DNA of 64,000 nucleotides from Candidatus Poribacteria bacterium (GTDB lineage: Bacteria > Poribacteria > WGA-4E > WGA-3G). Below, piece by piece: positions 19,262 through 37,022 of the stretch (position 1 is the first letter of the stretch; each line of letters opens with the position of its first letter). A program made the translations under genes and the position numbers. The stretch lies in assembly GCA_963664215.1 (NCBI GenBank), contig OY761015.1; one strand, written 5' to 3'. The notes beneath the pieces are model-generated. The model saw only the letters and a program-made list of their open reading frames with translations, did no database searches and was not told the DNA's origin.

Positions 19262-19266
19262 TAATT

Positions 19267-20022
19267 TTAACCTGCATCTATGACGTATGGACGGTTGCCG
19301 ATGGATGGCGGCAGGAGCATCCGTTTCTGTTGTTCGGTGAGTTCACCATATTTGCTGAGATCGTGATATTCTCCCGACCATGCCGAGTGTCCCGGACTAT
19401 ATTTATAGAGCAGGGAGCGGCGTTGATGTTTTGCCCGCCACGTCATCGTCCCGTGAACAAGGGCTTCCGTGAAGAACAACACATCTCCCGCTTCGACAGC
19501 CGGTTGCACAACGTAGTGTGCAGGACGCTCGAAATGCTGCACATCTGACGGCAAATCCTGCAAGAAATTGCTCTTATGGCTTCCCGGAATACAGGCGAAT
19601 CCACCTGCACCTTCGGGGGCATCCGCCAGATTGTATGACATCACAGACAATCCGTTGCGCATCACACCATCGCGATATTTGTACCAGTGATCCGCCTCAG
19701 GACCGCCGGGTCCACCGCCATCTTCACCGCCGTGCAATCTACCACCCTCTTGCCCTTCATCCATAAAGATGGCATAATCGTGATCTAAACGGACGTGTGG
19801 ACCTAATAACTCGAGGAGATACGGGAGAATTTTCGGATGGTCAATCAGGCTCTTAAAGGGTTCACCCCAGAGACTCGACACTCGATCGCCGTGTCCTCTC
19901 AAACTCTCGCTGGATTCTCTATCGATAAACGCATTCATCTCAGCGACTTCATCTTCGGTCAAGACGTTCTTTATCACGAGATAGCCTTGAAGGTCTACCT
20001 GAAATTTTTCTTCACCAGTCAT
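19267..20022 (-). CDS. Phytanoyl-CoA dioxygenase (PhyH) family Fe(II)/2-oxoglutarate oxygenase, copy 1 of 3.
   Basis: 'HVRLDHDYAIFM' HxD iron motif, 'GFACIPGSHK', 'FFTEALVHGT'. Start set at 'MTGEEKF' by alignment with copy 3. Carries a 15-aa insertion relative to the other copies. Confidence 0.8.
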   Translation of the reverse strand: MTGEEKFQVDLQGYLVIKNVLTEDEVAEMNAFIDRESSESLRGHGDRVSSLWGEPFKSLIDHPKILPYLLELLGPHVRLDHDYAIFMDEGQEGGRLHGGEDGGGPGGPEADHWYKYRDGVMRNGLSVMSYNLADAPEGAGGFACIPGSHKSNFLQDLPSDVQHFERPAHYVVQPAVEAGDVLFFTEALVHGTMTWRAKHQRRSLLYKYSPGHSAWSGEYHDLSKYGELTEQQKRMLLPPSIGNRPYVIDAG

Positions 20023-20136
20023 TTGTAGAAACTCCTTCGTTTGGTTTTCAGTTTGTAGGTTCGGTTTCACTGCGTTCCACCCAACGCCTTTGTGAACCAG
20101 ACGGGTAGGTGCGGTTTCCAACCGCACCAGATTGCT
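20023..20136. repeat. About 114-bp intergenic unit repeated between the PhyH copies, containing the hairpin GGTGCGGTT-tcc-AACCGCACC.
   Basis: Near-identical sequence at 20872-20985. Confidence 0.75.
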
Positions 20137-20871
20137 TCAATTCTCTTCAACAACGCGGGGACGTCTACCGATTGAAGGCGGCAACAACATCCGCTTCTGT
20201 TGTTCCGTCAACCCTTCGTATTGACCGAGGTCGTAATAATTGCCCGACCATGCCGAGTGTCCAGGACTATATTTGTAGAGCAGCGACCGACGTTGATGTT
20301 TTGCTGTCCACGGCATCGTTCCATGAACGAGGGCTTCCGTGAAGAATAGCACATCCCCTGCATTAAGAGACGGTTGGACGACGTAGTGCGTTGAACGTTC
20401 AAATCGCCGCACCTCCGACGGGATTTCCCGCAAGAAGTTGCTCTTATGACTTCCGGGGATACAAGCGAATCCGCCTGCACCTTCCGGTGCGTCTGCTAAA
20501 TTATATGTCATCACGCATAACCCGTTCCGCATGATACCGTCGCGGTATTTGTACCAGTGATCGCCTTCGTTGCCGCCGGGTCTACCACCGTCTTCACCGC
20601 CGTGCAATCCGCCACGTCCTTGTCCTGCCTCCAGAAAGATGGCGTAATCGTGGTCGAGACGAACGTGCGGACCCAACAGGTCGATGAGATACGGCAGGAT
20701 CTTCGGATGATCGATCAATCTCTTAAAAGACTCACCCCAAAGGCTTGGTGGTCCTTGGCGTTCACCATTATCAATAATGGCATTCATCTCGGTGACTTCA
20801 TCCTCAGTCAGAACATTCTTTATGACGAGGTAACCCTCAAGATCTACCTGAAATTTTTCTTCACCTGTCAT
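20137..20871 (-). CDS. PhyH-family dioxygenase, copy 2 of 3.
   Basis: About 85% identical to copies 1 and 3 across the whole protein. Confidence 0.8.
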   Translation of the reverse strand: MTGEEKFQVDLEGYLVIKNVLTEDEVTEMNAIIDNGERQGPPSLWGESFKRLIDHPKILPYLIDLLGPHVRLDHDYAIFLEAGQGRGGLHGGEDGGRPGGNEGDHWYKYRDGIMRNGLCVMTYNLADAPEGAGGFACIPGSHKSNFLREIPSEVRRFERSTHYVVQPSLNAGDVLFFTEALVHGTMPWTAKHQRRSLLYKYSPGHSAWSGNYYDLGQYEGLTEQQKRMLLPPSIGRRPRVVEEN

Positions 20872-20985
20872 TGGGATAAATCCTTTCGTTAGATTTTCAG
20901 TGTGTAGGTTCGATTTCACTGCGTTCCACCCAACGCCTTTGTGAACCAGATGGGTAGGTGCGGTTTTCAACCGCACCAGATTGCT
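20872..20985. repeat. Second copy of the 114-bp inter-PhyH spacer with hairpin.
   Basis: Seen directly. Confidence 0.75.
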
Positions 20986-21720
20986 TCAATTTTCTTCAAT
21001 AACGCGGGGACGCCTACCGATGGATGGCGGCAACAACATCCGTTTCTGTTGTTCTGTCAACCCTTCATATTTACTGATGTCGTAATAGTGTTCCGACCAT
21101 GACGAGTGTCCCGGACTGTATTTATAGAGCAACGAACGGCGTTGGTGTTCCGCTGTCCACGGCATCGTCCCGTGGATGAGTGCCTCGGTGAAAAACAGAA
21201 CGTCACCGGCTTCCAGTGGCGGTTGAACGACATAGTGTGCCGGACGCTCAAAACGTCGCACATCCGTTGGGAGTTCCGTCGGAAAGTTACACTTGTGGCT
21301 TGCTGGGATACAGGCGAACCCACCCGCGCCCGCTGGAGCATCCGCCAGATTATAAGTCATCACGGACAACCCGTTCCGCATGTGTCCATCTCGGTATTTA
21401 TACCAGTGATCGCCGACGCTGCCACCGGCGCGTCCACCGTCCTCACCGCCGTGCAATCCACCACGTCCTTGCCCTTTTTCCATAAAGAGGGCATAATCGT
21501 GGTCGAGTCGGACATGCGGACCCAACATATCGATGAGATACGGCAGGATTTTCGGATGATCGATGAGTCGCTTGAACGGTTCACCCCAGAGACTCGGCGG
21601 TCCTTCGAGGTCGCCTTTGTCGATAATGGCGTTCATCTCAGCGACTTCATCGTCGGTCAGAACATTCTTTATGACGAGATAGCCCTCAAGATCTACCGCA
21701 AATTTTTCTTCACCAGTCAT
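20986..21720 (-). CDS. PhyH-family dioxygenase, copy 3 of 3.
   Basis: Same motifs; native 'MTGEEKFAVDLEGY' start. Confidence 0.8.
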   Translation of the reverse strand: MTGEEKFAVDLEGYLVIKNVLTDDEVAEMNAIIDKGDLEGPPSLWGEPFKRLIDHPKILPYLIDMLGPHVRLDHDYALFMEKGQGRGGLHGGEDGGRAGGSVGDHWYKYRDGHMRNGLSVMTYNLADAPAGAGGFACIPASHKCNFPTELPTDVRRFERPAHYVVQPPLEAGDVLFFTEALIHGTMPWTAEHQRRSLLYKYSPGHSSWSEHYYDISKYEGLTEQQKRMLLPPSIGRRPRVIEEN

Positions 21721-21819
21721 GTGAAAGTTCCTTTCATTTAGCAGTCAGCAGTTAGTCTTCAGCAGTCGGTTTTGATTGACGATAGTCCATTATAGCATTA
21801 CCGAAATATTTCGTAAACT

Positions 21820-22992
21820 TCAACTGACTTTTCGATCTTTTGGTGGAGTCACTTCAAAATCGAAGCCACCGAGCACATCGCCGTTCACCTCCACCTCGAA
21901 ACGGTGCCAACCGAGACAGGCCTTTCCGTCCGCGTGCTGCTTAAGCGAAGGCAACGGAAACAGAGATTTCTCATAATCGACACGCTCTCTCGGCTTCAAC
22001 TTCCGTTGACTGAACCGGTAGCGTTTACGCGTGATGTGTCCTGATGGACGTTTGTAAGCGACTGCGTAATACGTAAGGATTGTCTGTTCAGCATCGGAGT
22101 CGCTCTGTAAACTGAACGAAAAATCGAAAACCTCATTGATCGGAAGCATTTGGCGTTCAGGTTTCAACTCGATGAGTGCAATATTCGCTTTACCTAATGT
22201 CGGCACCGCTCCCATGCCGAGGAGTTTGAAAGCGCGTTCGTCACCAATCTTCACCTGATATTTCAATGCCTGCCGGAGAATTTTCTGCGTCTCTGACCGT
22301 CCATCCTGACACCACCGTTCCAGTGTGGTGTACCCCGCCTCTGGGTAGTCCTTGACGATATCGCGCATACCCGTCGCGACCTGTTCCCGAACACGCGCAT
22401 CTGGATCGTCTTTGAGTATTTCCAGCAGTGATAGGATCGGTTGTGGGTCTTGGATAAACGGACGCAGCCATTTTTGGTGTATGCCGCGTGTACACAGCGA
22501 TGCCGCCACGAAAAGGCGGAGATTTGCGTTTTCGTCATTGACCCATTCACTGAAACGTTCAAAACACCGATTCGGGGCTTTGATGATAAACGCACGAATC
22601 TCATCGCCACGGGTACACCGATGTTTTGAGAGTTCGCGGAAAGCGTCCAGAGATGCCTCGAAATCGGCGAGTCCGTAGAGGCTAATAAAGTGCGAAATCG
22701 GTCTCAGGCTCGTCTCGACTTCGGGGGTTGGGTGCCGCGTCGGTTCCGGTGGTGCTTTGATCTCGACGAACGCCATCAAGATAGCGAGAGCCTCGGAATA
22801 GTTTTCTGGAAGATACTGGCGTAGGACGCGACCAATCGCGTTCGTCACGTTGTGGAGCGTCTGTCCCTCCATCTCTGTCCGAACGTCAGAGACGAAGGCA
22901 GTCACATCGAATTCAGGATAGATGTGCTGCAACTTCTTGCCGATGACCAAGCCGTCCTGTGTCAGATCGAAAAGTGTGCGTTGATCTCTCAT
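21820..22992 (-). CDS. HEAT-repeat DNA alkylation repair (AlkD/AlkC-like DNA_alkylation family) protein with a C-terminal extension of about 120 aa.
   Basis: 'EILKDDPDARVREQVATGMRDIV', 'FVAASLC' and other HEAT-like helical repeats typical of DNA_alkylation proteins. Start set at ATG 22990-22992. Confidence 0.45.
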   Translation of the reverse strand: MRDQRTLFDLTQDGLVIGKKLQHIYPEFDVTAFVSDVRTEMEGQTLHNVTNAIGRVLRQYLPENYSEALAILMAFVEIKAPPEPTRHPTPEVETSLRPISHFISLYGLADFEASLDAFRELSKHRCTRGDEIRAFIIKAPNRCFERFSEWVNDENANLRLFVAASLCTRGIHQKWLRPFIQDPQPILSLLEILKDDPDARVREQVATGMRDIVKDYPEAGYTTLERWCQDGRSETQKILRQALKYQVKIGDERAFKLLGMGAVPTLGKANIALIELKPERQMLPINEVFDFSFSLQSDSDAEQTILTYYAVAYKRPSGHITRKRYRFSQRKLKPRERVDYEKSLFPLPSLKQHADGKACLGWHRFEVEVNGDVLGGFDFEVTPPKDRKVS

Positions 22993-23068
22993 GTCCAAAG
23001 ATTCCTCTACTTCGGTGTTCCTTGATTCCCACGGGTATAATCCAAAGGTACTGACATTTATTTTCTTG

Positions 23069-23120
23069 GTAGGAGGGATCTCCGAATCCCGACTGCTGTA
23101 GGAGCGACCTCCTGGTCGCG
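23069..23120. repeat. REP-like family D: GTAGGAGGGAwCTCCGAwTCCCGACT with an AGGAG/CTCCT hairpin.
   Basis: Also at 37710-37752. Confidence 0.7.
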
Positions 23121-23202
23121 ATACACCGCACAAACAATCAGAAAACCGAATAGTTCTGATCGTCAGTTATCAGGGCGTTTTCCCATGAAAATTCGCCTTA
23201 AA

Positions 23203-23833: not shown

Positions 23834-24067
23834 TTAGGTGGACTGGATTTTGGTGAGTGATAGCATTTTTGCGTGAGCGGACTCTAAAATCGAATCTCGA
23901 ATGAAGATGCTGGCATTTAGAATTTCAATACCTATGAGTTCACCGTTGCTGTTCAATTCGGCGGTGATATTGGGACTGAGTTCCAGACTCGCACTTTCTG
24001 GCTCCTCAGAAATCGCCAGATGCAATACATCCTCTTTCTCAAAATAGGTCATCTTTGTTTTATTCAA
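23834..24067 (-). CDS. DUF2283-family small protein, usual partner of DUF4258 in TA-like pairs.
   Basis: 'YFEKEDVLHLAISEEPESASLELSPNITAELNSNGELIGIEILNAS' matches the DUF2283 consensus (...GEIVGIEILNAS). Confidence 0.4.
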   Translation of the reverse strand: MNKTKMTYFEKEDVLHLAISEEPESASLELSPNITAELNSNGELIGIEILNASIFIRDSILESAHAKMLSLTKIQST

Positions 24068-24392: not shown

Positions 24393-26864
24393 TTATTCTT
24401 CCAGCAATTGCATGATTTCATCAAAACCGAAGTTCAGAATAAATTCTGCGTAATAACTGTCGAACAGATCTTTGAGGTAAGTACCTAATTCAACGTCAAA
24501 ATCGGTGTTGTTATAGAAGCTGGTATTGTCTTCTTCTCGCACCACTTGATATTTACGAGCCTTTGTAATTGAATATAGAAACAGGACATGAGAATATACA
24601 GAGGCGATATATCTCTGATTCGCTATTTCTAACTGTTCCTGACTAGCATTTCTGGTTTTCGCTCTGAAGTTCATTAGAACAGTACTATCCATGTTAATAT
24701 AAACGCTTTCTAACTTATCTTCTTTCACCATCGGGTACATTACAGTACCGAAGTCCATCGTCTCACTTGTCGCATTTTCGACTTGCTCCCAAGTTAATGC
24801 ACCATTTCTTTCCTGTCTTTCTTCTTGATAAACGAATTTCAGGTCGGGTAATCCTAAGGTTGGAATTTCCTTTTTTTCAGGTTTCGGTGAGGGCTGCGAG
24901 GGGGCTTTTGGTTCACTTACTTTCACCCAGAATATATCCTCAAATTCCCCTGTTGGATCTTCCAAGCTAACTTTGATTTTTGCTTCAGCCCCAACATTTA
25001 CTTCTTTTTTAGGATTAAGATGAATCTTGATCGTTCCGTCTTGTGGACTGCTTCTCCGAGCATTAAATACATCATCAATCCGGTCAACTTTACCCGGAGC
25101 ATCCCCACCTTCTGTTTCATTCGTTTTGAAGTCAAGAATGGCGATTTTCAACTCTCCGGGTTCTTCAATTCGGTTAAAATAATTGTTTTCGACATCCGTA
25201 TCAAAGAGAATCGTTTTCTCTCCACCAAATGGTATTATCACTACTTCTTTACCTTTTTTTCCTTGTCCACGTCGTTTGAAAAATGCAGGAAATCGTTGTG
25301 GATTAAAAGGATTCTGCTCCTTCTCCTTCTGTTTTTTCTTAGTTGAGTTGTTAGTGTTCCCTTTTTGCTTACCTTTGGGTGGTAAATCTAAATTTAAAGT
25401 TTGCTCCAATAACTTTAATAACTCTTCATTTCGCGAGAAATTCTGTGCGAAAGATTTGAGTAAGTCTTTCGCATCTTCACTTTCTACCGCTATTGAGTCT
25501 TTCCTTCGTTTCTGAATTTCCGTTAAACGCCCATCTTTCGCACCAAGTTTTCCTGCCAAAAATCTCCGCAAAATACGTGTTTCCTCTCCACTTTTCAATC
25601 TGTCCCGAGAAGCCATGAATAACTCTTTACGGAAGTCATAGTTCATATCCGTGCAATCGACATGGATAAGAAGATGTTCCTTGAGTAAGTTCAATTTTAG
25701 AGAGCGAGTTATGAATTCCGATGTGTAGTGTCCATGGACCTGTCCGTTGACTGAAAATAGGACAGACATATTATTTTTGAAGAACTCTCTGCGAATTGTT
25801 TCTTTAGTTTCCTTGACGGATCTGTCATCAATTTTCGTTTTGAACACATAGCAGGTCACTTTCATTTTACCAAAAAGGTCATCGTCAAAATCTTCGGAAA
25901 AGGACTCTTCAACGTACTTGTTATCTTCCTGTTCTAATCTGCGCTTTAATCCATATAAACCCCGTCGCAAAGAACTTTTAGGGTAGCGTTCCTCTTTTTC
26001 GATCGTATAGACTGGTAAGATGGGTTCAAACAGATATTCGTTAATGCTCTGATTCAAATCCCTTGAAATATCTGAGATTCCAGAGGGAAGATCATAAGAG
26101 TAGAGTTTGATAATTGTTCCTGCTGTGAAAGTCCTTTTATATAGTCCTAAATCCTGTTGATCTGCTTGAAAAGAAGGAATTTTTCCGCCGATCTTGAGGT
26201 ATTCGTACCATGTGTTCTTTTTCGTGCTTGCTTCTGCTTTGCTCAATGGATGTTCTCTGATTAATGTGAAACCGAATTCTCCAACGTTATCGTAACGTTT
26301 TGAGCCGATTAACTGGTATCGCTTTTTACCGCAGAACACAATGGCACCGCTGCCACCCATATTGTATCTACCTTGCACGAAGTGGATTTCGTTCTTATTC
26401 CCTCTCAATAACGAGAGGAAGGTGTTCTCGAATTCTTCAGGATGTTGTCCCTCGCCATCATCATAGATAATTAGGGAAGTTTTGCCCCGCGGTCCATCAG
26501 CAAGGATTTGGATGCTCTCAGCTTGTTGGTTTCTGAATGATGGCAGATCCCAATCTCTATGGTTTGGAAAGAAATTCGTTCTGGCTTCATCCATGGATTG
26601 GGGAGCTTGATTGGATTTGGGATCGATGCCTGCTTGCAAGCATTTCTTCATCAAAACAGCATCAATGGAGTTCGTAATTTTTTCAATCAGGGCGGCAATA
26701 GGACTTGATTGTTGATTTTCGATGACAGCGAAATAGTTTTCGTCTTCACCAATAGGAGACCAATTTTCAGATTTGAATATGTCAGAATGGACGTTGACGA
26801 TTTTATCAACGGTGTCTTCAGTTTGTGCGAAGTACAGTTTGTTGAAAAGTTCCTTCATATCCAT
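24393..26864 (-). CDS. GHKL/Bergerat-fold ATPase (HATPase_c-like) multidomain protein of 823 aa.
   Basis: N-box 'ALIEKITNSIDA', G1 'DDGEGQ', G2 'GRYNMGGSGA' in the first 200 aa. Long C-terminal region with a Lys-rich linker. Translationally coupled to the upstream PAPS-reductase gene (51-nt gap). Confidence 0.7.
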   Translation of the reverse strand: MDMKELFNKLYFAQTEDTVDKIVNVHSDIFKSENWSPIGEDENYFAVIENQQSSPIAALIEKITNSIDAVLMKKCLQAGIDPKSNQAPQSMDEARTNFFPNHRDWDLPSFRNQQAESIQILADGPRGKTSLIIYDDGEGQHPEEFENTFLSLLRGNKNEIHFVQGRYNMGGSGAIVFCGKKRYQLIGSKRYDNVGEFGFTLIREHPLSKAEASTKKNTWYEYLKIGGKIPSFQADQQDLGLYKRTFTAGTIIKLYSYDLPSGISDISRDLNQSINEYLFEPILPVYTIEKEERYPKSSLRRGLYGLKRRLEQEDNKYVEESFSEDFDDDLFGKMKVTCYVFKTKIDDRSVKETKETIRREFFKNNMSVLFSVNGQVHGHYTSEFITRSLKLNLLKEHLLIHVDCTDMNYDFRKELFMASRDRLKSGEETRILRRFLAGKLGAKDGRLTEIQKRRKDSIAVESEDAKDLLKSFAQNFSRNEELLKLLEQTLNLDLPPKGKQKGNTNNSTKKKQKEKEQNPFNPQRFPAFFKRRGQGKKGKEVVIIPFGGEKTILFDTDVENNYFNRIEEPGELKIAILDFKTNETEGGDAPGKVDRIDDVFNARRSSPQDGTIKIHLNPKKEVNVGAEAKIKVSLEDPTGEFEDIFWVKVSEPKAPSQPSPKPEKKEIPTLGLPDLKFVYQEERQERNGALTWEQVENATSETMDFGTVMYPMVKEDKLESVYINMDSTVLMNFRAKTRNASQEQLEIANQRYIASVYSHVLFLYSITKARKYQVVREEDNTSFYNNTDFDVELGTYLKDLFDSYYAEFILNFGFDEIMQLLEE

Positions 26865-26915
26865 TTTTCGGATTCCATTCTATGAACTTGAACCAAAAGG
26901 CAGGCAACCAAATTT

Positions 26916-27797
26916 TTACTTATGACAAATCAAACACGGCTCCTCATCATCCTCATCGTCGAGAACCTCGGTAAGGATCTCAGCGGGACTGAAGATTTGC
27001 ATTAGGGTTTGATTCGGTTTCGTCATTTTCTTATCCGCTATTGCTCTTTTCTTGTCTTCTATCGCCTTTTCGGTATTAGCCTTGATTTCTGTTACCCGTT
27101 CCGGTTTCGACAACTCCTCTAAAGTTTCACCCTGACACCATGTGAACAATTCATCTGTCTTTGAATGTGGATTGGGTTTCTCGTATTCCTTGGCGCGTTT
27201 AAACAGCTCTGGATGTTTCTCTAACAATCCGACCCACTCGGATTTGCGCTGGAAGAAACAGAAGTAACACCCGGAGCGCGTTCGCCAATTGTAATAGTCA
27301 GGTAAACCAACTCCACTCTCCTCCAGAATTCGATAGACATCCTCTTTCGTGATGCCGTCCTCTTTAAAAGGGTATTTGGGTTCGATATTGCGAAGGGTGG
27401 AGGTTTTTAATGGCTTATAGCCGATGCGCTCTTCGTCTGCACGGATGGCAATGTAATGATACGCTTTATCTTCGCCAACGTATTCTTCAAAAGGTCTTAT
27501 TTTTAGGTTAACAGTGCACCAGCGAACTTGAGACGATGGCAGCAAACCCCCATAGAGCGTCAACCAATGGTCGAAATCGCGGTTACTGTTGGGATCGGAA
27601 TCCATGTTGAGGCGTATAATCGGTTTGCCGAGGAATACCTCTAATCGATCCAAAAACGCATAGGTCTCTGGCAATTCCTTACCTGTGTCAGAAAAGAAGT
27701 ATTCCATCTCGGGCACTTTGTCCCGCATGTAAACCGCAAGCGCAGAACTGTCTTTGCCTCCAGAGAGGCCGAGAAGATGACGAACTTTATGTTCCAT
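26916..27797 (-). CDS. PAPS reductase-family (PP-loop) ATP pyrophosphatase, SspD/DndC-like.
   Basis: PP-loop 'LGLSGGKDSSALAVYM' near the N-terminus. Conserved Cys pairs including a C-terminal 'CLICHK'. 293 aa. Confidence 0.8.
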   Translation of the reverse strand: MEHKVRHLLGLSGGKDSSALAVYMRDKVPEMEYFFSDTGKELPETYAFLDRLEVFLGKPIIRLNMDSDPNSNRDFDHWLTLYGGLLPSSQVRWCTVNLKIRPFEEYVGEDKAYHYIAIRADEERIGYKPLKTSTLRNIEPKYPFKEDGITKEDVYRILEESGVGLPDYYNWRTRSGCYFCFFQRKSEWVGLLEKHPELFKRAKEYEKPNPHSKTDELFTWCQGETLEELSKPERVTEIKANTEKAIEDKKRAIADKKMTKPNQTLMQIFSPAEILTEVLDDEDDEEPCLICHK

Positions 27798-27863
27798 GTT
27801 TCCCTCTGAGGTAGTTGTTTTGTTACTCTACAATCCCAAGTGTACCATATACTTCCAAAAATA

Positions 27864-30800
27864 TCAAGACGTTTCCTGCTTGTCCTTCAGCATCAATTTC
27901 TGTGAGATTCGTGCTAAGACTGCCAGACGGAATTCAAGGTTTCCATCCGTATCAATTTCGTTAGAAGTTTTCTCAATTGCGCGTTCCAATTTATCTGCTT
28001 GTTCCTGGGCAGTTGAAGGCAAAATGACAACTTGTTCCTGTTCGGCGTGTTTCGGCCTCGTAACGCCGATACGAATTGGTTCACCTGCTGATGATTCAGT
28101 GTGATCCCATTTTTCGTAGGACACTGCTTCAAAATGCCGAAATTTCCTTGCGAATTGAGAAAGATTACTTTCAAATTGTGCTTTATCCAAGTCTATCCAT
28201 GATGCAGGTGGTTTTTTGGTAAGATAGGTTGCTATTGCCTCGAGCCAGCTGGTAAAATCATGTCCACCATTACAGATTTGAATCAAAAACCCTTTAAAAT
28301 CAGTTTCTATTGTTATTTCTAGCAAAGGCTCAGCTCTAGTGACCAATTCTGTTTGGAGTACTTCTTTCTTTGGTGTCAAATCGAAGGCTTCTACGAGCAA
28401 TTGCTCGATAAAGTTCAGCAGCACTTCGTAAGCCTGCTCTAACTCGGACAGTGTATCTTGCAGTGTGGTGAAGAAATCTGAAACAACCTTTACATCTGTT
28501 GCTGTTTCTGTACCAAAGGCAGAGAAACCAAGTGCTTCAGGCAATTGATTAAAAAGGAGTTCGTCAGGCTCACGCGCATTCAGAACGACTTCCCTTACAT
28601 TTTTTGACGCGGCACTCAATTCTTGTGTTGTTAGTACATACTTTGGAAGTTGTGCTATAGAGTGTATAACCGGCGTGATGGCTGTTAACAAATCAGAGTT
28701 TTCGGCTGTCATCGGTTGATCGAGCATCTCCAAAAATTGTGCTAACAGATCCGCGCGAATACCGACTATCCGAAAACATTTCAGTTCAAATTGTTGAGGG
28801 ACTTTGAGTAATCTTTCAAAAATTGGCATTGACCAGGTTGGTATAAAAGATCCGTTTTCGTAAAGAGCGATTTCGGTTTTGTGATATAGCATCGCGGCAC
28901 ACAAAAGAATAGGCAGTGGACCATTTCGCACGCCGAATGGCGATGCCATCAGACGTTTATAGAGTGCTACAATAGGTTGTCGTTTCCCTTCACACTCAGT
29001 AAGAAACTCCTCGATTGCTTTCCATGTGTGCTCCATTCTGTTCTTATCACTTGTTTTGGGTGGGTAAAATCCCCATACACCTGAGGCTTCGCGATGTATT
29101 CCGGTCTTCCATAAGAGAGAACGATAGATACTCATTTGGGGGGGATAGCCGGTGATACCAAGGTCTTCCTTCTCCTCGTTTTCAAGCATCGCTTGGATTA
29201 ACTTCTTCCGTCCGGTTGTTACAATCCCGGAGATTTTCCGTCGGTTAATCAGTTCGTTCCGAATAGTAGGTGTTTTGTTGTAAACCTCATCGCAAATTTC
29301 TGAGAGGTACGCGTTTCTTGCACGTTGGGAGTTAATGTCTACCGGTTGTCCCTTGTGGTACCATATACAAGCATTTTTGCTGTCTTTGCCAAAGATTGCC
29401 GTTAGCCTGTCGGATACTTCTTTTTCTGCTTGTGTCTGTTGCACTGAGAGTTCAAGTCTTGCCACTGGATCTCCTTCTAATTCAGGTGTATTGTCGGAAA
29501 TCCAATGTAGATGGGTGAGTTGAGTAACAGCATCTTGTAGAGCACCTATAGTCTGAGGGATTGCAATTAACACCTCTTGAAGGGAAACAAGGGCATTCTC
29601 ACTTGCCTTTTCGACTAATTCGTTAACTTCATGTTTATTTGCTGGAAGGGCATAGAGTATAAGTCCATCTGCATCACCGAGTGGTGTTCTGATATCTGCA
29701 TCAAAATTTTCGAGATCGGTGTACCGAACGGCAAAATGACGAAGGGTGCCAGTTTCAAATAGATGTTGTCGGGCAACGAGGGGACGTATTGACAGATAGC
29801 GCGACAAATTTGTGGCGAGATTGGTTTTTGTATGAACACTTCCTTCTGCCTCACGGAGTTTTGCTTCAATGTCAATATCGCTCCCTTTCCAAAGCGCGTA
29901 AGCCTTATTATAGAGACGGTAGATAGCGATTGAACGATCTTTCAAAGTGTCGAGTGCTGTCTCAAATTCATGGGCGAATCCTTTTGTTTTATCATCTAAT
30001 GCATAACGGAGCATCGACTCTGAAGCTTTCAGATTCGGAATTGATTCGCTAACGATGCCGAGTATTCCGATCGTTTTAATCAGTTTAGCTGACAAGGTGG
30101 ACGAGTCGGACAATCGACCTATTGCCGATTCAATTTCTGCCCACTTCTTGCTATTATGTGAGATATACAGCCGATTCCCCATATTAGTCTTGAGGTAATC
30201 GTACAGGTCGGTGATTGAAAACAAGGGTAATGTATCTCTGTTATAACGCTGATTAAAAAGAAAATCTTGGAGTCCATGCGGTTCGCTTGAACTGAGGAAG
30301 GCAAAGAGGGAACGTTCATTCTGTCCGAATCGCCGGAAAATCGAATCTATAACAAGTACAACGGTCGGATGGAGTGGCAGGCAGTTTCTCAGGAGTTCGC
30401 TAAATTCGTCCGCGGTAAGTTGGCTCGGTTTGAGTTCTAATTCGGTGGGTAAAGATAAATTTCTTTCCTCATTTCCTGAGGTTTTCTCAATAGCAGAACC
30501 AATCAAGCGAAGAACCTGTTCAGTGGGTTCCACAAAGGCTATGTCCTCAAACCGTCCTTGGACCTTTGCCCATTCCTCCTGTTGCGATTTGGCTGCTTTG
30601 CTTGCATATTGTTCAAAGGCTTGATGGAGAATTGTCAGCAAGAATAGTGGAGTCTGGTCACTTCGCGTAGCGAATTCGGCAAGGGTTTGTAACACAAAAA
30701 TATCGCCTTGTACAGGATCTTGTGCAGCGTACTCAAGGAACTTGCCCAGCTCATCAATCACTAATAATAAACCCTGTCCACCGTTTTCCCCGATAGTCCT

Positions 30801-31361
30801 TGTTGCTAATTCAAAAAGAGCAGTAATTTCAGATGCCTGAGGAGGTATGCCGTTCGCTGCTGTTCTCAATAGTTTTCTGATCTTCTGTTGAAGTGAGCCA
30901 ATAGGCAGAAATTCAGAGGCTTTAAGTCCCTGTTCTAAACCACGCAGAAGGGCAATCGGGAGGGGAGCGCGCTCTCCAGAGATAAGCACAGGACAAAATC
31001 CGGATAGCGACCAATTTCCGTTCTGCTTTGTATCCATAAATTGTTCATATAGCGCGATATCTCCATCTTTTAATACTTTTAAGGCCTGTCGAGTTGTCGC
31101 GGCCTCAGGATCCCCAAGAAGTTTCGCTGCGAAAAGTGCGAATGCTGATTTTCCCGACCCGTAGGGACCGGTGAGCGACCATGCTTTCGATGTTGTCTCA
31201 TTTTCAAGGGTCGCAACGATACGCGATAGCATCTCGCGCGCTGTAACAGTCAAAATATATCCATCTAAGGCGTTCTCTGTATAGAAATCACGTTCCAGAT
31301 GAACTGAACGCCTAAAACGACCCTTAATCTGGAAAAGTTTTGACAAAGGGGTATTATCCAT
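27864..31361 (-). CDS. Giant P-loop NTPase (1165 aa), SspC/BrxC-like.
   Basis: Walker A 'LTGPYGSGKSAFALFAAKLL', Walker B 'LLLVIDELGKF' in the N-terminal 250 aa. Long helical C-terminal region. Overlaps the upstream DUF4007 gene by 8 nt. Confidence 0.7.
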   Translation of the reverse strand: MDNTPLSKLFQIKGRFRRSVHLERDFYTENALDGYILTVTAREMLSRIVATLENETTSKAWSLTGPYGSGKSAFALFAAKLLGDPEAATTRQALKVLKDGDIALYEQFMDTKQNGNWSLSGFCPVLISGERAPLPIALLRGLEQGLKASEFLPIGSLQQKIRKLLRTAANGIPPQASEITALFELATRTIGENGGQGLLLVIDELGKFLEYAAQDPVQGDIFVLQTLAEFATRSDQTPLFLLTILHQAFEQYASKAAKSQQEEWAKVQGRFEDIAFVEPTEQVLRLIGSAIEKTSGNEERNLSLPTELELKPSQLTADEFSELLRNCLPLHPTVVLVIDSIFRRFGQNERSLFAFLSSSEPHGLQDFLFNQRYNRDTLPLFSITDLYDYLKTNMGNRLYISHNSKKWAEIESAIGRLSDSSTLSAKLIKTIGILGIVSESIPNLKASESMLRYALDDKTKGFAHEFETALDTLKDRSIAIYRLYNKAYALWKGSDIDIEAKLREAEGSVHTKTNLATNLSRYLSIRPLVARQHLFETGTLRHFAVRYTDLENFDADIRTPLGDADGLILYALPANKHEVNELVEKASENALVSLQEVLIAIPQTIGALQDAVTQLTHLHWISDNTPELEGDPVARLELSVQQTQAEKEVSDRLTAIFGKDSKNACIWYHKGQPVDINSQRARNAYLSEICDEVYNKTPTIRNELINRRKISGIVTTGRKKLIQAMLENEEKEDLGITGYPPQMSIYRSLLWKTGIHREASGVWGFYPPKTSDKNRMEHTWKAIEEFLTECEGKRQPIVALYKRLMASPFGVRNGPLPILLCAAMLYHKTEIALYENGSFIPTWSMPIFERLLKVPQQFELKCFRIVGIRADLLAQFLEMLDQPMTAENSDLLTAITPVIHSIAQLPKYVLTTQELSAASKNVREVVLNAREPDELLFNQLPEALGFSAFGTETATDVKVVSDFFTTLQDTLSELEQAYEVLLNFIEQLLVEAFDLTPKKEVLQTELVTRAEPLLEITIETDFKGFLIQICNGGHDFTSWLEAIATYLTKKPPASWIDLDKAQFESNLSQFARKFRHFEAVSYEKWDHTESSAGEPIRIGVTRPKHAEQEQVVILPSTAQEQADKLERAIEKTSNEIDTDGNLEFRLAVLARISQKLMLKDKQETS

Positions 31362-32292
31362 AATGCCTTTCTAAGAGTTTCATCAGGTTTAGATCGTTCC
31401 GTCGATAAACCTGTTTCAAACCTGCGGTTTCATCGTATTGTAGTGCTTCATTGGTAAGTTGCGCAAGATTTTCAAGATATGCTATCATTGTGTCTTCGTC
31501 TAACCTGAAGATTCGTCCAGGACTTAAGGGGGCGTACATCAGGTCTGAAAATGGTAGGGCATTCCTTTCAAAAAAACGGAGATCCCAAAATGCGACTAGC
31601 GTTGCTGTAAAAACCTCAGCTGGTAGTGTTCCTTTCTCACCTCGTTGGAATTCATACCCGTTACCTTCTGGTAATTCGGCGATTAGATTAAGCTCAACGA
31701 GTGGAGAGTCAAAACTCTCCTCAATTACGGCAGCGGTATGACGTGACTGGCAGTACGTTCGGATAAAGCAGTTGACATCGCGTTGAAGTGTATTATCAGA
31801 GATAGGTCTCATAGATGCTTTCTGTTGTTGTGCCCATTTGTATACCTCTTCCATGAATGTCGTTGGAACGAATTGATTTTTTCTCAAAACGTTAAATGCC
31901 CAATACCACGTGGTTGCCTGATTAATATTGGTCGCAATCTGCCAATGAATCAACCACAAAGTGGCAGGATCTTCAAGGTATGGATCAAACCCTTTTTTAT
32001 CGTTAAAAATGGCTTTGCCGAGTTTAGTCGGAACAAGCTTTCTACGCTGGTCGGGATCCACCTTAATAAGTCTAGCAACGGTACACCAATGTCGAATGGA
32101 GCTTACCATGTTTTTTCCAACGCCTAAAGTAACGAAAGCGTCTTCCGATGAAAAGACGGTCGGATTTTCTGTTACGGCATCAACACCCTTTTTCAGCCAT
32201 GTATACCGAAACGGAAAAGTCTGGTGCCCCGAGAAAGAAGGATTTGTCAACTGTGGTGAGATTGTGTGTTCAGTTATTAGGAAATTTTCCAT
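31354..32292 (-). CDS. DUF4007-family protein, SspB-like.
   Basis: N-terminal 'FSGHQTFPFRYTWLKKGVDAV' matches the DUF4007 conserved block (HxTFxxRYxWLxK). 312 aa. First gene of the four-gene operon. Confidence 0.55.
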   Translation of the reverse strand: MENFLITEHTISPQLTNPSFSGHQTFPFRYTWLKKGVDAVTENPTVFSSEDAFVTLGVGKNMVSSIRHWCTVARLIKVDPDQRRKLVPTKLGKAIFNDKKGFDPYLEDPATLWLIHWQIATNINQATTWYWAFNVLRKNQFVPTTFMEEVYKWAQQQKASMRPISDNTLQRDVNCFIRTYCQSRHTAAVIEESFDSPLVELNLIAELPEGNGYEFQRGEKGTLPAEVFTATLVAFWDLRFFERNALPFSDLMYAPLSPGRIFRLDEDTMIAYLENLAQLTNEALQYDETAGLKQVYRRNDLNLMKLLERHYG

Positions 32293-32343
32293 ATAACTTA
32301 TTATACTTTATGTGTGGAAGAGAAGTCAACACGCATTGAACAT

Positions 32344-33688
32344 CAGGGCTATCCAGTTTTCCGCTTTCTCTCTATATGAGTTTAACTGCGCGTTTAGGTT
32401 TTGAAGCGAAAAATCGGAGCGTTTCAGCGATTTTCGTATGTCCGTTGAAGCGTAAGACAGACAGAACGGTGTTGCGTAAGGCAGCCATGACTTCTGGAAT
32501 ACTGCCGGTTCGTGCTTGTGAAGCATCCTCACCGAGGACGGTATCTCGGACCCAATGGACTTTGTTTTCTATCGTCCAGTGTCCTCGTCGGAGTTTCAGC
32601 AAAGCTTCTGCGGAGGCTTTCTGAGGCGTTAGACTTGTGATGCCATACTGCGTCTGAGAGGAGATCTCTGCTGTTTTGGTATTGACTCGCTGAGACTGGT
32701 ATTGATAGACTTGTGCGAGTCCTGGCCAGTTGATGTAATCTGTCAAGAGTGTGCTTGCTGTGAGGGTGCGTGTGGTGGTGAACCCATGTGATGTTTCGAC
32801 CTGTGTGTGTGTATTGAGGTGTGCTGCTTCTTGGGTGTGGAGGTTTTCAAATCGGCGTGCTTCAACCTCTGTGGGGTCTGTCTGCGAGAGGGGTTCAAAG
32901 AGTTGAGAAATATCGTCATACATCTGTTTGTGGTTCTCTTTGACGGGCATTGCATAATCTGCTTTGTGTTGGATAATGTCTTTGCAAAAGGTTCTCTGAG
33001 TCAAGAGTGCATCAGTTGTGATGACTTTGCCGAGGACATCAAAGGTTTTCAAGAGTTTTGTTGCGATGGGAATCTCGTTGGTCTTTCCACTGACGGAACA
33101 TTGTGCCAAGGGGATTCCTACCTCGTGGCAGACAGCGGCGAGTAAATGTGTCCGGTATCCGGTCTCTGGGTCTTCGGAGCCCCGTAGTTCTTTGCCATCG
33201 ATGGCAACTGCGTGTAAATCTTGTGTTTTCAAAACTTGAAGATCTTCAAGTTTTGAAAACACCCATTTCGTGAGGCAGGCTTCTAAACTGGCGACATCCA
33301 GACGCTTCAAGAGATTATGAAGGGTCGTCGCACATGGGGACTTTCGAGACCTGAAACCTAATGCTTTTGTCAGTTCAGGGTGGTCCCGAGCCCAGGTCGC
33401 TATAGAAGTATAACCTTTATGATTCGCCATCAAACCGATGACGATCAAGGCGAGGATAGAGACTAAAGGATGACGTTTGCCTTTTTTATGGCGTGGATCT
33501 GGAACTTCTGCTAATATATCAAGCAAGTGGCAAGAGGGTGTTCTTGTCATGATTCACCTACAAAAAGTGATATTTTTTACGGTGAAGTATAGCAGAAGTC
33601 GCGTGAAACGCCACGCGACTTCTGCTTTTCTGAAGATATTAACATCTGTGAAAAAATACAGAAAAAAACCGAAAACTGGATAGCCCTG
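32344..33688 (-). mobile_element. ISAs1-family insertion sequence (1345 bp) with 18-21-bp terminal inverted repeats, flanked by a 10-bp direct repeat CATTGAACAT.
   Basis: IR 'CAGGGCTATCCAGTTTTC' at 32344-32361 and its reverse complement at 33671-33688. Direct repeat at 32334-32343 and 33689-33698. Single transposase ORF inside. Confidence 0.8.
32372..33550 (-). CDS. ISAs1-family DDE transposase (H-repeat-associated protein type).
   Basis: N-terminal 'LLDILAEVPDPRHKKGKRHPLVSILALIVIGLMANHKGYTSIATW' (DDE_Tnp_1_assoc), 'HAVAIDGKELRGS', 'TIENKVHWVRDTVLGEDASQ' DDE region. Confidence 0.85.
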   Translation of the reverse strand: MTRTPSCHLLDILAEVPDPRHKKGKRHPLVSILALIVIGLMANHKGYTSIATWARDHPELTKALGFRSRKSPCATTLHNLLKRLDVASLEACLTKWVFSKLEDLQVLKTQDLHAVAIDGKELRGSEDPETGYRTHLLAAVCHEVGIPLAQCSVSGKTNEIPIATKLLKTFDVLGKVITTDALLTQRTFCKDIIQHKADYAMPVKENHKQMYDDISQLFEPLSQTDPTEVEARRFENLHTQEAAHLNTHTQVETSHGFTTTRTLTASTLLTDYINWPGLAQVYQYQSQRVNTKTAEISSQTQYGITSLTPQKASAEALLKLRRGHWTIENKVHWVRDTVLGEDASQARTGSIPEVMAALRNTVLSVLRFNGHTKIAETLRFFASKPKRAVKLI

Positions 33689-34105: not shown

Positions 34106-35203
34106 ATGCCCAAATATGAAGCTGGAATCACAGAGATTAACACGCTTGTTCGCCGCCTCGGTTATGTTTCCGCAATTCTACGATTGCTTGAGCATAGAAC
34201 GCTAAGTGAATCTGTACTCTATACTCAACTTGAAAAATGGAGTCTCAATCATGAGCCAGATTTGATGGATTACGCGAATCAGCAAGGATACATTAAGGCG
34301 ACGCGCGGACAAGCTGCTCCAAGACGATACACTAATTTCGCTGTTTCGTTGGGAATTATAGGGCGAATCGCTGGCGCGTACCGTGTGACTCGATTTGGAA
34401 AGGCATTGCTTCCTTTCCTATGCCGAATTCCTGATCAAAATCCGTTTGAACTGACGAACGCGGAGTGCTGTGCCTATCTGTATTGGCTTCTGCTGAAGGA
34501 TAGCGATCGACTTCTTACAGTTATTCACATGTTAGTTGAACAAGAGACTTGCTCTCTTTCCGATTTGCAAAGTGCTTTCCCCGCGTTTTATCTTCAGCAA
34601 TTGCAAGCCCGGATGCTAACATCGGAAAAACATGTTGCTCGTGACATCTTGGCGGAACGGAACCGTGTGGCACATTGGAAAGAAGAATCAGGGCGTTCCA
34701 TGGAAAATGTTGTGCCACCACGCATTCATTGGTTGGCAGACCTCGGCTTGGTCTCAGTTGAGAATCATGGAAGGAGACGGTCTGGATTGACAGAAATGGG
34801 TGCCCGATTTTCTCAGTCTCTTCCAAAGATTCAAGAGATGCCGACTTTTCACACAAGTTCAAAGTGGTTGCGGACGCAATTCTTTGGCATTGCTGGACAG
34901 ATATTTATGGGCACAATTGATCGACGCTGGACGGAAATACATGATTTAGAAAAAAAAGAACTGCTTTACAAACTCACTTTTCAGGCTTTTGAAACGCTTC
35001 GGAGTACACCGACCCCGAAGATTTCTTTATATCCAGCACTCATTTATATGGCACTTCTTCTCACAACGGATAACGGAATAGCGGTGAATTTGGAGGAACT
35101 CCAGGCAGATTTAGATATGTTTTCCAAAGATCCTGATACACGCTATGCGGTCCGATTTTCCCATCGCGAGAATGAGTCCTACCTTATTTTTCTGCCTACC
35201 TAA
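34106..35203 (+). CDS. Hypothetical protein (365 aa), first gene of a three-gene operon.
   Basis: ORF with no recognisable motif. Overlaps the next gene in the operon. Confidence 0.5.
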   Translation: MPKYEAGITEINTLVRRLGYVSAILRLLEHRTLSESVLYTQLEKWSLNHEPDLMDYANQQGYIKATRGQAAPRRYTNFAVSLGIIGRIAGAYRVTRFGKALLPFLCRIPDQNPFELTNAECCAYLYWLLLKDSDRLLTVIHMLVEQETCSLSDLQSAFPAFYLQQLQARMLTSEKHVARDILAERNRVAHWKEESGRSMENVVPPRIHWLADLGLVSVENHGRRRSGLTEMGARFSQSLPKIQEMPTFHTSSKWLRTQFFGIAGQIFMGTIDRRWTEIHDLEKKELLYKLTFQAFETLRSTPTPKISLYPALIYMALLLTTDNGIAVNLEELQADLDMFSKDPDTRYAVRFSHRENESYLIFLPT

Positions 35204-35213
35204 CCGAAAACTT

Positions 35214-35843
35214 ATGGATATTCTAATTCCTGATACATCGTCCCTTATCAACATACATGAGGTTTATGTAGGGCGATCTCATATCATTGATGTTTTAAAT
35301 CAATTGTTCACTGTGCAAGTCTCGCGAGAGATACCGCATGAAATCAGGCGACGCAGGAATAAATTAGGAGACTACGACAAACAGATGTTGCAATTTGTGC
35401 GTCAAGCAAGGCGATATTTTCCGCATGAACAAGATTATGAAGATCTGCTTTTCAATCGATTTTCAACATCTAGCGACCCGACTCGCAATCGTGGGGAGCG
35501 TTATAATTGCGCGCTGGCATTTTATCTGGTTCGGAAACGGAGGATGGGGCAAGTTATTATACTGACAGATGATAGGAAGGCAAGGCGAGGTTTGATGGAT
35601 TGGTACGAGAATCGCTTCGCAGCGACAAGGACTTGGTCATCTTTGGAATTACTGTTGCATATCTATCTCGTTATGTTTCCAAAGTGGCCATACAATCGGG
35701 CTGAGTTGGCTTTACAACAGGTAAACCCTCACCTTGCTGGAACCCAAGTGGAGATGACGAAGCGTCTTCGTGAGTATCGCCGTTATCTCGAGCGGTTACA
35801 TGCTATGCTGAAAGCCTTGCCATCTGTAAGAAAAACGAGGTGA
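35214..35843 (+). CDS. PIN-domain-like protein, putative nuclease.
   Basis: N-terminal 'MDILIPDTSSLINI' (PIN motif 1, Asp) and 'VIILTDDRKA' (T-D-D motif). Start at ATG 35214. 4-nt gap to the next gene. Confidence 0.45.
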   Translation: MDILIPDTSSLINIHEVYVGRSHIIDVLNQLFTVQVSREIPHEIRRRRNKLGDYDKQMLQFVRQARRYFPHEQDYEDLLFNRFSTSSDPTRNRGERYNCALAFYLVRKRRMGQVIILTDDRKARRGLMDWYENRFAATRTWSSLELLLHIYLVMFPKWPYNRAELALQQVNPHLAGTQVEMTKRLREYRRYLERLHAMLKALPSVRKTR

Positions 35844-35846
35844 AAC

Positions 35847-37022
35847 ATGACATACTCCATTGATTGGAATTTAGCCGGTTTACGAGAAAATCCCTTTACA
35901 ATCAGTCCTCCAACTGATCCCAAGCAGACAACTTGGGCAGGCCTAAAAGAACTCAAAGGCGAATTTAAGAATGTCTTCCGAGAAACCAAAGCATCAGCAC
36001 CAACGCAGGTAGTATTATGTCGAGGAGCTATTGGGGCAGGTAAAACACATGCTTCACTTTTCTTTAGTTCTGACCAAAATATGCCTGAGGCATCACCGAG
36101 TGTTCAAAGTCTAGAAGTTCTAAGGGTTCAAACCCCTACTGAAACTGGGAATCCAGCGAGGGATTTTTATCTCGATGTCATAGATCAGATTGGACTTGAA
36201 CGTATAGCGGAATCGGTGAAAGAAGGTGTGGAATCTGTTGGACGGGATGTAGTAGAGCGAAATCTTCGTCAAACGGTGGTGAGTGGTGACTTCGTGAATG
36301 CGCTACTTAAGTTGTTTGAGGCTTCACCTATTTCTCCGGGGGCTGGCTTGCCTCTAAGTGCCTACTTCCTGGGCAAATGCACGACTACGGAATTGCGAAA
36401 ACTTGGCTTAAATCGAAACATTGAGAAAACACAAGATTACTTTCGAGTGTTAGCAGGCGTTTTTCACTGCCTTACGGGGTTATCTGAATCCTCTGATGTA
36501 ACTCAGCACAATCGATTCTGTCTATGGATAGATGAAATGGAGAATTTCATCTATTTTACACCGCCACAATACCGTCCCTTCGGACAGGGATTGCGTGAAC
36601 TCGTAGATCGGCTTCCCTACTTTTTCACACTTTTGATGAATTTTACGCTGACCGCGCCAGAGGAATATGAAGAAATTGAATTGATTCTGGGAGGCTATCT
36701 CACCGACCGGATTACCCGACAGATTTTCTTTCATGAAGTGAAAGATCAAGAAGAGTTGCTGCAATATGTCCGCGAACTTCTCTCTCACTACAGAACCGAA
36801 GAAAAACCCAAAACACCTTATTTTCCGTTTACAGAGGAGGGACTCCGGGCACTTCTGTCTAATTTGCAACATGGAACACCGAGAGACGTGAATAAGCGGT
36901 GTCGTAATGCCCTGATGCGAGCGTTTGAAAAAGGGATTTTTGAGAAAGGAAAGGGCTCCGTAATTACGCCTGAATTTGTACAGGAGATGACGCAGGAAGA
37001 ATTAGATAAAGAGTTTGGATAA
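35847..37022 (+). CDS. P-loop NTPase (ORC/Cdc6- or DUF2791/BrxD-like AAA).
   Basis: Walker A 'LCRGAIGAGKTHASLFF', Walker B-like 'FCLWIDEMENF'. 391 aa. Confidence 0.6.
   Translation: MTYSIDWNLAGLRENPFTISPPTDPKQTTWAGLKELKGEFKNVFRETKASAPTQVVLCRGAIGAGKTHASLFFSSDQNMPEASPSVQSLEVLRVQTPTETGNPARDFYLDVIDQIGLERIAESVKEGVESVGRDVVERNLRQTVVSGDFVNALLKLFEASPISPGAGLPLSAYFLGKCTTTELRKLGLNRNIEKTQDYFRVLAGVFHCLTGLSESSDVTQHNRFCLWIDEMENFIYFTPPQYRPFGQGLRELVDRLPYFFTLLMNFTLTAPEEYEEIELILGGYLTDRITRQIFFHEVKDQEELLQYVRELLSHYRTEEKPKTPYFPFTEEGLRALLSNLQHGTPRDVNKRCRNALMRAFEKGIFEKGKGSVITPEFVQEMTQEELDKEFG

Follow-up and report, generated by a model that had tools for sequence, protein, structure and literature searches.

A GHKL ATPase family associated with SspBCD phosphorothioation modules as a probable new partner component of phosphorothioate-based restriction-modification

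A 64-kb window of a Candidatus Poribacteria contig, whose numbering is used throughout, was found to carry four minus-strand open reading frames (ORFs) encoding the phosphorothioate (PT) writer proteins SspB, SspC and SspD and a GHKL-class ATPase of 823 amino acids (aa), named here GHKL-823. Comparison with 80 GHKL-anchored and 80 SspD-anchored loci (labelled L###) revealed that GHKL-823 is an obligate associate of Ssp, yet optional for Ssp. The GHKL family is probably a new partner component of PT-based restriction-modification (RM). In the preferred reading, to which a probability of roughly 0.55 is given, GHKL-823 is an optional, laterally exchangeable companion of SspBCD on the restriction side, an ATP-gated clamp or matchmaker that uses PT as the self mark. 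Three rival explanations were ranked below it and are weighed with the evidence that bears on each.

The ORF scan of the window reproduced exactly the four coordinates and the spacings of the initial annotation. The sspB and sspC genes overlap by 8 nt, while gaps of 66 nt and 51 nt separate sspC from sspD and sspD from the GHKL-823 gene, respectively (Table 1). The sspB product matched Pfam DUF4007 over positions 1–288 of 288 (E=1.2e-90) and PADLOC SspB (E=2.3e-102), and the motif FSGHQTFPFRYTWLKK was found in it; the earlier DUF4007/SspB call, together with the block quoted for it, was thus upheld by the hidden Markov models (HMMs) of both collections. The second gene, which had been placed in the position of SspC, gave a near full-length match to PADLOC SspC (E=0, 1087 bits, residues 13–1079 against a 1054-position model) and also matched BrxC (E=4.5e-196). 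Its product had been thought unusually long for SspC; however, 1165 aa fits the family range, as the PADLOC SspC models span 1011–1123 positions and the SspC proteins of other loci 1044–1268 aa. A BrxC-like/SspC-like hybrid was rejected, because the model lengths are normal and homology to BrxC is common to the SspC family as a whole (PMC12839542). The third product was confirmed as an SspD/DndC-like PAPS-reductase-family protein by PADLOC SspD (E=4.4e-113), by Pfam PAPS_reduct (E=6e-8, above the cut-off) and by its SGGKDS motif. SspD falls into length classes among the GHKL-linked loci, with 293 aa in the window, approximately 367 aa in L021, L047 and L065, and approximately 580 aa in L061, L063 and L068. 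The Bacteroidota class carries a C-terminal extension of approximately 75 aa; in the Chloroflexota class, it is the N-terminus that is greatly extended, and the gene is located upstream of sspB.

Five SspA proteins of related loci, used as tblastn queries, found no cysteine desulfurase SspA in the 64-kb window, so that the statement that none is encoded locally holds for the entire stretch. Among the 80 related loci, 22 have SspA, and an adjacent SspA is not a strictly defining feature of the SspBCD module, since IscS is able to substitute for it. Judged from these matches, the locus is an intact SspBCD phosphorothioation module. Within it, SspB would recognise and nick DNA, SspC would serve as the BrxC-like ATPase, and SspD would be the PP-loop enzyme that inserts sulfur to give single-strand PT. 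The sulfur donor would be a housekeeping cysteine desulfurase encoded elsewhere.

The GHKL-823 protein contains the motifs EKITNSIDA (N box), DDGEG (G1) and GRYNMGGSG (G2) and matched HATPase_c_3 barely above the cut-off (E=1.6e-5, 25.4 bits against 25), in agreement with the GHKL/Bergerat ATPase call of the initial annotation. An alignment of 103 homologues, reaching down to 27% identity, was the basis of an AlphaFold2 model with a predicted local distance difference test (pLDDT) score of 87.4 and a predicted template modelling (pTM) score of 0.87. The ATP motifs of the Bergerat fold (N box, G1, G2 and G3) are all present and invariant in the 103 homologues, and little or no variation is seen at the residues E61, N65, D68, D135, G137, G139, K157, G165, G170, R203, K253 and R420. 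Since the ATP-binding and catalytic residues are conserved, the ATPase is under selection, and GHKL-823 is probably a conserved and active ATPase. The modelled ATPase module is of the MORC3/SMCHD1/MutL-like GHKL+S5 kind, with an S5/transducer domain directly C-terminal to the GHKL domain. This module (approximately residues 1–420) is followed by helices (427–487), a basic linker (488–540), Ig-like beta-sandwiches (approximately 529–724) and a helical tail (728–822). The disordered basic linker has a net charge of +11, against −13 for the whole protein. Pfam gave HATPase_c_3 alone and NCBIfam 20 no match to GHKL-823; neither the protein nor 10 distant relatives matched PADLOC-DB 2.0, and a profile search against PDB sequences returned noise only, with no MutL match.

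The linkage of this family to Ssp genes was assessed in the GHKL-anchored set, for which one genome per species was scanned and 80 loci with homologues at 51–88% identity were obtained from Poribacteria, Bacteroidota, Chloroflexota, Myxococcota, Gemmatimonadota, Verrucomicrobiota, Actinomycetota, Ignavibacteria and others. Ssp presence was scored by tblastn with the SspB, SspC and SspD of the window within 10 kb, and 50 loci have both flanks. Every one of these 50 fully flanked loci carried at least one Ssp gene, 49 carried at least two and 41 all three, which answers the concern, raised initially, that the GHKL association might be incidental. The incomplete sets were mostly explained by genes running off the fetched flank or by a divergent 579-aa SspD. 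Linkage persisted where SspB and SspC were only 23–35% identical. The placement of the GHKL gene varies: in some phyla the gene follows sspD in the same direction, in Bacteroidota it is convergent, and elsewhere it lies upstream of sspB; more distant GHKLs (42% and 37% identity) again lie 14–33 nt downstream of sspD. Homologues of GHKL-823 are also carried on plasmids of cultured Ensifer, Hymenobacter and Devosia. On plasmid pC of Ensifer adhaerens NER9 (NZ_CP101520), the order XRE-SspA-DUF4007-ATPase-PAPS reductase-(two genes)-GHKL was observed, and the GHKL homologue of this strain (WP_255382444.1) is named 'hypothetical protein' in RefSeq. Chitinophaga japonensis DSM 13484 and Dysgonomonas hofstadii DSM 104969 are further cultured strains with homologous loci. 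The family as a whole comprises more than 2500 homologues, and its Ssp-linked clade reaches approximately 37% identity.

The reverse association is rare. The GHKL-823 family was present in 1 of the 80 SspD-anchored metagenome loci, with tblastn and HMM search in agreement, and in none of the 21 GHKL-less loci that were placed on the tree, each of which extends 8 kb or more from sspD in both directions. On a neighbour-joining tree of SspD, systems with and without the GHKL gene are intermingled, with four or more state changes. As Ssp is always near the GHKL gene and the GHKL gene is rare near Ssp, the gene behaves like SspE and SspFGH, depending on Ssp but not vice versa. These observations bear on a rival in which GHKL-823 belongs to the modification side, where it would use ATP to remodel or regulate SspBCD, by loading, recycling or limiting this writer in the manner of DndB or DndE, the real effectors being the variable cassettes of the same loci. 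Such a role would suit a protein that has no nuclease fold, is constant while the cassettes vary, and is never the sole partner; its gene is co-transcribed directly after sspD in the window and in L014, L016, L166 and L169, and the remodelling of protein-DNA complexes is an activity of GHKL+S5 modules (PMC2292703). GHKL-823, however, is missing from nearly all sampled SspBCD modules, the experimentally validated Ssp modules were described without such a gene (PMC8092258), GHKL-linked forms are scattered among GHKL-less ones on the SspD tree, and the sister clade of GHKL-823 works without any Ssp genes. A place on the modification side is considered doubtful on balance.

That sister clade came to light among the stand-alone relatives. 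At 28–40% identity, relatives of GHKL-823 sit outside Ssp contexts, with or without a small upstream ORF, and several stand-alone GHKLs are preceded by an abutting, conserved helical ORF of approximately 75–106 aa (for example, L161:9761-9991, L163:9688-10008 and L168:6847-7074). The small ORF is retained in three Ssp-linked Bacteroidales loci (L032, L045 and L077) and absent from the window. P0230, a stand-alone member that branches more deeply, shares its island with an Eco29kI-type RM system and helicase-nuclease genes. In the neighbour-joining tree, the Ssp-linked GHKLs form one clade that is sister to the small-ORF stand-alone clade. Because the Ssp-linked forms make up a single clade with a stand-alone sister, the tree suggests a single capture of a stand-alone GHKL cassette by Ssp, followed by exchange among Ssp variants. 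An extension of this scenario, regarded as decidedly unlikely, would make GHKL-823 a bacterial MORC-like reader of PT, captured once from a stand-alone two-gene cassette (small helical protein plus GHKL), that clamps, compacts or silences unmarked invading DNA without cutting it, as a counterpart of MORC/SMCHD1 silencing.

The same relatives could be taken to mean that GHKL-823 is an autonomous defence gene which accumulates next to Ssp in defence islands with no functional coupling. The stand-alone forms without Ssp, the RM/helicase island of P0230, and the variable unrelated defence genes inserted in the same loci point in this direction. An accumulation of this kind is hardly probable in view of the 50/50 co-localisation across many phyla, which holds despite rearrangements and with SspBC down to approximately 25% identity, and of the 14–56 nt spacers after sspD in several lineages. 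The Ssp-linked forms are, moreover, a single clade, and the island of the window holds only Ssp, the GHKL gene, a three-gene cassette and an insertion sequence (IS).

The region between sspD and the GHKL gene is a hot spot for swappable effectors. Only 51 nt separate the two genes in the window, whereas most related loci hold a variable cassette there. Canonical SspE was found in this position in 8 loci, and a DUF262-only protein, partnered by a Ser/Thr kinase, a SIR2 protein or a RiboL-PSP HEPN protein, in 24 loci. The DUF262-only proteins are approximately 370 aa long (L025, L031, L032, L041, L047–L053, L062 and others), and such cassettes occurred in 24 of 80 GHKL-linked and 0 of 47 GHKL-less Ssp loci, counts that are not phylogenetically corrected. 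Other cassettes consisted of a GIY-YIG protein with a DndB-like protein, an Mrr-like protein, a nucleoside deoxyribosyltransferase-like protein, a double-GHKL 'histidine-kinase-like' protein with partners, or the genes c8, c18 and c11, which also form the three-gene cassette of the window. The double-GHKL protein (approximately 800 aa; HATPase_c_3 + HEF_HK + HATPase_c; 'sensor histidine kinase' in RefSeq) is accompanied by a partner of 590–680 aa and is encoded either between sspC and sspD or after sspD (L166:4949-9171, L169:4975-9122, L157, and L171 of Ensifer adhaerens pC).

This arrangement changes the position that was assigned to GHKL-823 initially. The GHKL gene had been placed in the effector slot, but the place between sspD and this gene is taken by SspE in 8 loci and by a DUF262/DndB-type cassette in most others. 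In that original reading, GHKL-823 would stand in for SspE as a nuclease effector that senses PT, and its C-terminus would harbour a novel nuclease. The absence of any SspE, SspFGH or DUF262 protein from the window and the conserved polar residues T556, D557, R565 and N724 of the C-terminus are in line with it. Structure prediction, which had been proposed as the check, revealed no nuclease fold: a fold search of the model detected neither a nuclease fold nor a known PT-reading domain in the C-terminus of GHKL-823, which resembles generic beta-sandwiches alone. No D/E/H/K catalytic constellation is conserved among the homologues, and these homologues occur together with canonical SspE or with DUF262/DndB-type cassettes in the loci described above. 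A hidden nuclease is consequently held to be very improbable.

In the preferred clamp/matchmaker reading, GHKL-823 would form an ATP-gated dimer that works on DNA as a clamp or 'matchmaker'. Its self mark would be the PT status that SspBCD writes, read by GHKL-823 directly or via the SspB/SspC complex. Incoming DNA without the mark would then be immobilised by GHKL-823 itself, or else GHKL-823 would license the neighbouring swappable effector cassettes. In the window, the licensed cassette would be the c8-c18-c11 trio, across the recent IS insertion. The proposal builds on the roles of MutL and MORC and on what was predicted in 2008 for MORC-like ATPases of methylation-based systems. The defence role, the PT dependence and the clamp mechanism of GHKL-823 are inferred, as is its cooperation with the cassettes. 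Several points weigh against this reading. The stand-alone relatives indicate that the family is able to work without PT. Every complete GHKL-linked locus has another cassette (SspE, DUF262 with partner, GIY-YIG with DndB-like, c8-c18-c11 or double-GHKL), so GHKL-823 may not suffice alone, and its contribution is inseparable by genomics. GHKL-823 is at most a putative 'effector', as no nuclease or known PT-reading domain was found in it. Finally, the SspD-anchored sample is biased towards SspD forms near that of the window, and the frequencies obtained from it are rough.

The c8-c18-c11 trio, which the IS parts from sspB in the window, has the GHKL gene on one side and sspD (or sspC) on the other in L027 and L046, and a variant trio takes this position in five Bacteroidota loci (L040, L056, L066, L072 and L079). 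In L177–L179, the trio directly adjoins SspBCD without GHKL-823. As it recurs next to Ssp both with and without GHKL-823, the trio looks like a second Ssp-linked module, for which no description was found. The initial annotation had treated these genes as a PIN-NTPase operon that merely forms island context; the PIN label is unsupported, and the recurrence makes the trio an Ssp-linked cassette. The c8 protein had no significant Pfam, PADLOC or PDB match, and c18 matched no Pfam or PADLOC family. The c11 protein of the window matched AAA_22 weakly (E=0.001), and a homologue matched AAA_22 and BrxC_BrxD. The possibility that c8 is a divergent DUF262/SspE-like sensor was rejected, as hhalign gave a probability of 0.1% and there were no PDB matches. 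The trio family is small, with 138 homologues, mostly from Poribacteria.

GHKL-less Ssp loci have partners of their own, namely SspE, an SspFGH-like trio, a BrxL-containing set, or a helicase-MORC-like-PLD set. The SspFGH-like trio of L093 encodes proteins of 617, 519 and 1811 aa with an FtsK_SpoIIIE domain. Approximately 11 of 47 long GHKL-less loci carried an SF2 helicase, a different MORC-like HATPase_c_3 protein and a PLD nuclease. In L087 (10885-15265), this helicase-GHKL-PLD cassette, whose GHKL family is designated c69 (approximately 600 aa), lies immediately downstream of sspD, as it does in about 10 more SspD-anchored loci (L086, L090, L107, L119, L126, L127, L140, L145, L146 and L151). 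With GHKL-823, the double-GHKL protein and c69 all found next to PT writers, GHKL ATPases recur there in several unrelated architectures.

The G+C content is 0.40–0.45 across approximately 24–38 kb of the window, compared to about 0.48–0.53 in the flanks. The island contains the DUF2283 ORF, GHKL-823, sspD, sspC, sspB, the IS and the plus-strand trio, and nothing else lies between the flanks (Table 1). Housekeeping or symbiont genes make up both flanks, with a HEAT-repeat protein, three PhyH paralogues and an ankyrin protein on one side and an FGE-sulfatase and MutY on the other. The three tandem PhyH-family dioxygenase paralogues and the ankyrin-repeat and HEAT-repeat proteins occupy 18095–23133 and were also found in the Poribacteria loci L002–L006 and L016, so that the Ssp-GHKL island sits in a conserved chromosomal slot. 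The nearest homologues of GHKL-823 come from Candidatus Poribacteria genomes in which the same chromosomal slot is filled. Among the island features named in the initial annotation, the adjacent IS (DDE_Tnp_1) and the DUF2283 ORF were recovered, while the PIN label was not, the sole match being the weak AAA_22 hit of the third trio gene. The DUF2283 ORF lies 325 nt downstream of the GHKL-823 stop and is not conserved in the related loci examined.

The IS is 1343 bp long, encodes a transposase with the Pfam domains DDE_Tnp_1_assoc and DDE_Tnp_1, ends in 18-bp terminal inverted repeats (CAGGGCTATCCAGTTTTC and GAAAACTGGATAGCCCTG) and is bordered by a perfect 10-bp direct repeat representing the target duplication (CATTGAACAT). 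The insertion site is located 52 nt before the sspB ATG, in a divergent intergenic region that measures just 64 bp in the homologous locus L016. The insertion looks recent and may alter how the two divergent units are expressed. An intact TTGACT-18-TATAAT, the best sigma-70-like match of the region (11 of 12 positions), was noted in the stretch from the IS to the sspB ATG; this candidate promoter is called from the consensus match, in a region where the total of sigma-70-like matches does not exceed chance. It ends 7 nt before the sspB ATG, and its use would leave the sspB mRNA leaderless or nearly so.

Table 1. Positions of the Ssp-GHKL operon and the other features of the island in the 64-kb window.
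Feature	Coordinates	Strand	Length	Basis
sspB (DUF4007 family; DNA-recognition/nickase subunit of the PT writer)	31354..32292	-	312 aa	HMM
sspC (BrxC/ORC-Cdc6-like P-loop ATPase)	27864..31361	-	1165 aa	HMM
sspD (PP-loop ATP pyrophosphatase, PAPS-reductase family)	26916..27797	-	293 aa	HMM and motif
GHKL-823 (MORC/MutL-class ATPase)	24393..26864	-	823 aa	HATPase_c_3, AlphaFold2 model, conservation, position
Candidate promoter of the sspBCD-GHKL operon (TTGACT-18-TATAAT)	32300..32329	-		Consensus match
IS element, in the divergent intergenic region	32345..33687	.		DDE_Tnp_1 transposase, inverted and direct repeats
IS transposase ORF (DDE_Tnp_1)	32372-33550	-		Pfam
c8, first gene of the three-gene cassette	34106..35203	+	365 aa	Recurrence next to Ssp
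c18, second cassette gene	35145..35843	+	232 aa	Co-occurrence with c8 and c11
c11, third cassette gene, P-loop ATPase	35847..37022	+	391 aa	Weak AAA_22 match
DUF2283 ORF	23834-24067	-	77 aa	E=7.6e-15

A survey published in 2021 listed 2678 sspBCD modules, approximately 7% of them with SspE and approximately 7% with SspFGH, and approximately 85% with neither nearby (PMC8092258). How the PT mark is used in this remaining majority is the question that the GHKL partner family addresses. The family constitutes one large, phylogenetically broad group of Ssp partners that is absent from PADLOC 2.0 and NCBIfam. The initial statement that a GHKL partner of Ssp is undescribed agrees with what was found in PADLOC, NCBIfam and the searchable literature, in which no GHKL/MORC partner of Ssp was mentioned; subscription-only articles were not covered, and a prior description is possible. 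GHKL, MORC and HATPase are unmentioned in two comparative-genomics surveys of Dnd and BREX from the Aravind laboratory (PMC10853773, PMC12839542), HATPase and histidine kinase in the paper on PT in BREX type 4 (PMC12914056), and a GHKL partner in the SspFGH paper (PMC8092258). A paper on a GHKL-Shedu system of V. cholerae proved unrelated. Since effectors gather between sspD and the GHKL gene, the architecture of the locus can be used to find new PT-dependent effectors, and the homologous loci in cultured strains make the hypothesis directly testable. An old prediction of MORC-like ATPases in restriction systems is now tied to a non-methyl epigenetic mark.

Compared with the described SspABCD-SspE and SspABCD-SspFGH systems (Xiong 2020; Wang 2021, PMC8092258), the window has the same SspB-SspC-SspD writer operon, and a local SspA can be dispensed with, just as E. 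coli 3234/A and V. anguillarum FF-93 rely on IscS. The pairing of a writer with a partner that is optional and can be exchanged agrees with the reported Ssp pattern. Unlike SspE, GHKL-823 has no DUF262 or DUF1524 domain, and unlike SspFGH it has no Walker-A SspF or FtsK-like SspH; its homologues co-occur with SspE in other genomes rather than standing in its stead. No protein of the window matched SspE, GmrSD_N (DUF262) or GmrSD_C (DUF1524); a true SspE, that of L075, scored E=0 with the same tools. FtsK_SpoIIIE had no match in the island, where the trio proteins are 365, 232 and 391 aa long, which sets them apart from SspFGH.

BREX type 4 (BrxP-BrxC-PglZ-BrxL) has also been shown to write PT (PMC12914056). 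The SspC of the window matches BrxC, and SspD and SspB match two halves of BrxP. Unlike in BREX type 4, SspB and SspD are separate proteins in the window, and no match to PglZ or BrxL was found among the island proteins. GHKL-823 further differs from MutL in having neither a C-terminal dimerisation/endonuclease domain nor a sequence-level match to any PDB chain.

A parallel is offered by the MORC and paraMORC1-5 proteins (Iyer, Abhiman & Aravind 2008, PMC2292703), GHKL+S5 ATPases that were predicted to serve on the restriction side of methylation-based RM systems, where DNA is looped between the sites of recognition and of cleavage. The helicase-GHKL-PLD sets of GHKL-less Ssp loci resemble the helicase- and nuclease-linked MORC cassettes predicted in that study, whereas neither an SF2 helicase nor a nuclease partner was found in the island of the window. 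The C-terminus of GHKL-823 also differs, consisting of an Ig-like beta-sandwich and helices, and the likeness is one of architecture. The mark would likewise be different, a backbone phosphorothioate written by SspBCD instead of a methylated base. GHKL-823 nevertheless shares with the MORC and paraMORC proteins the N-terminal GHKL domain with intact motifs, the S5 domain and a family-specific C-terminal extension, and like them it belongs to a modification-dependent defence locus, is laterally mobile and has stand-alone relatives.

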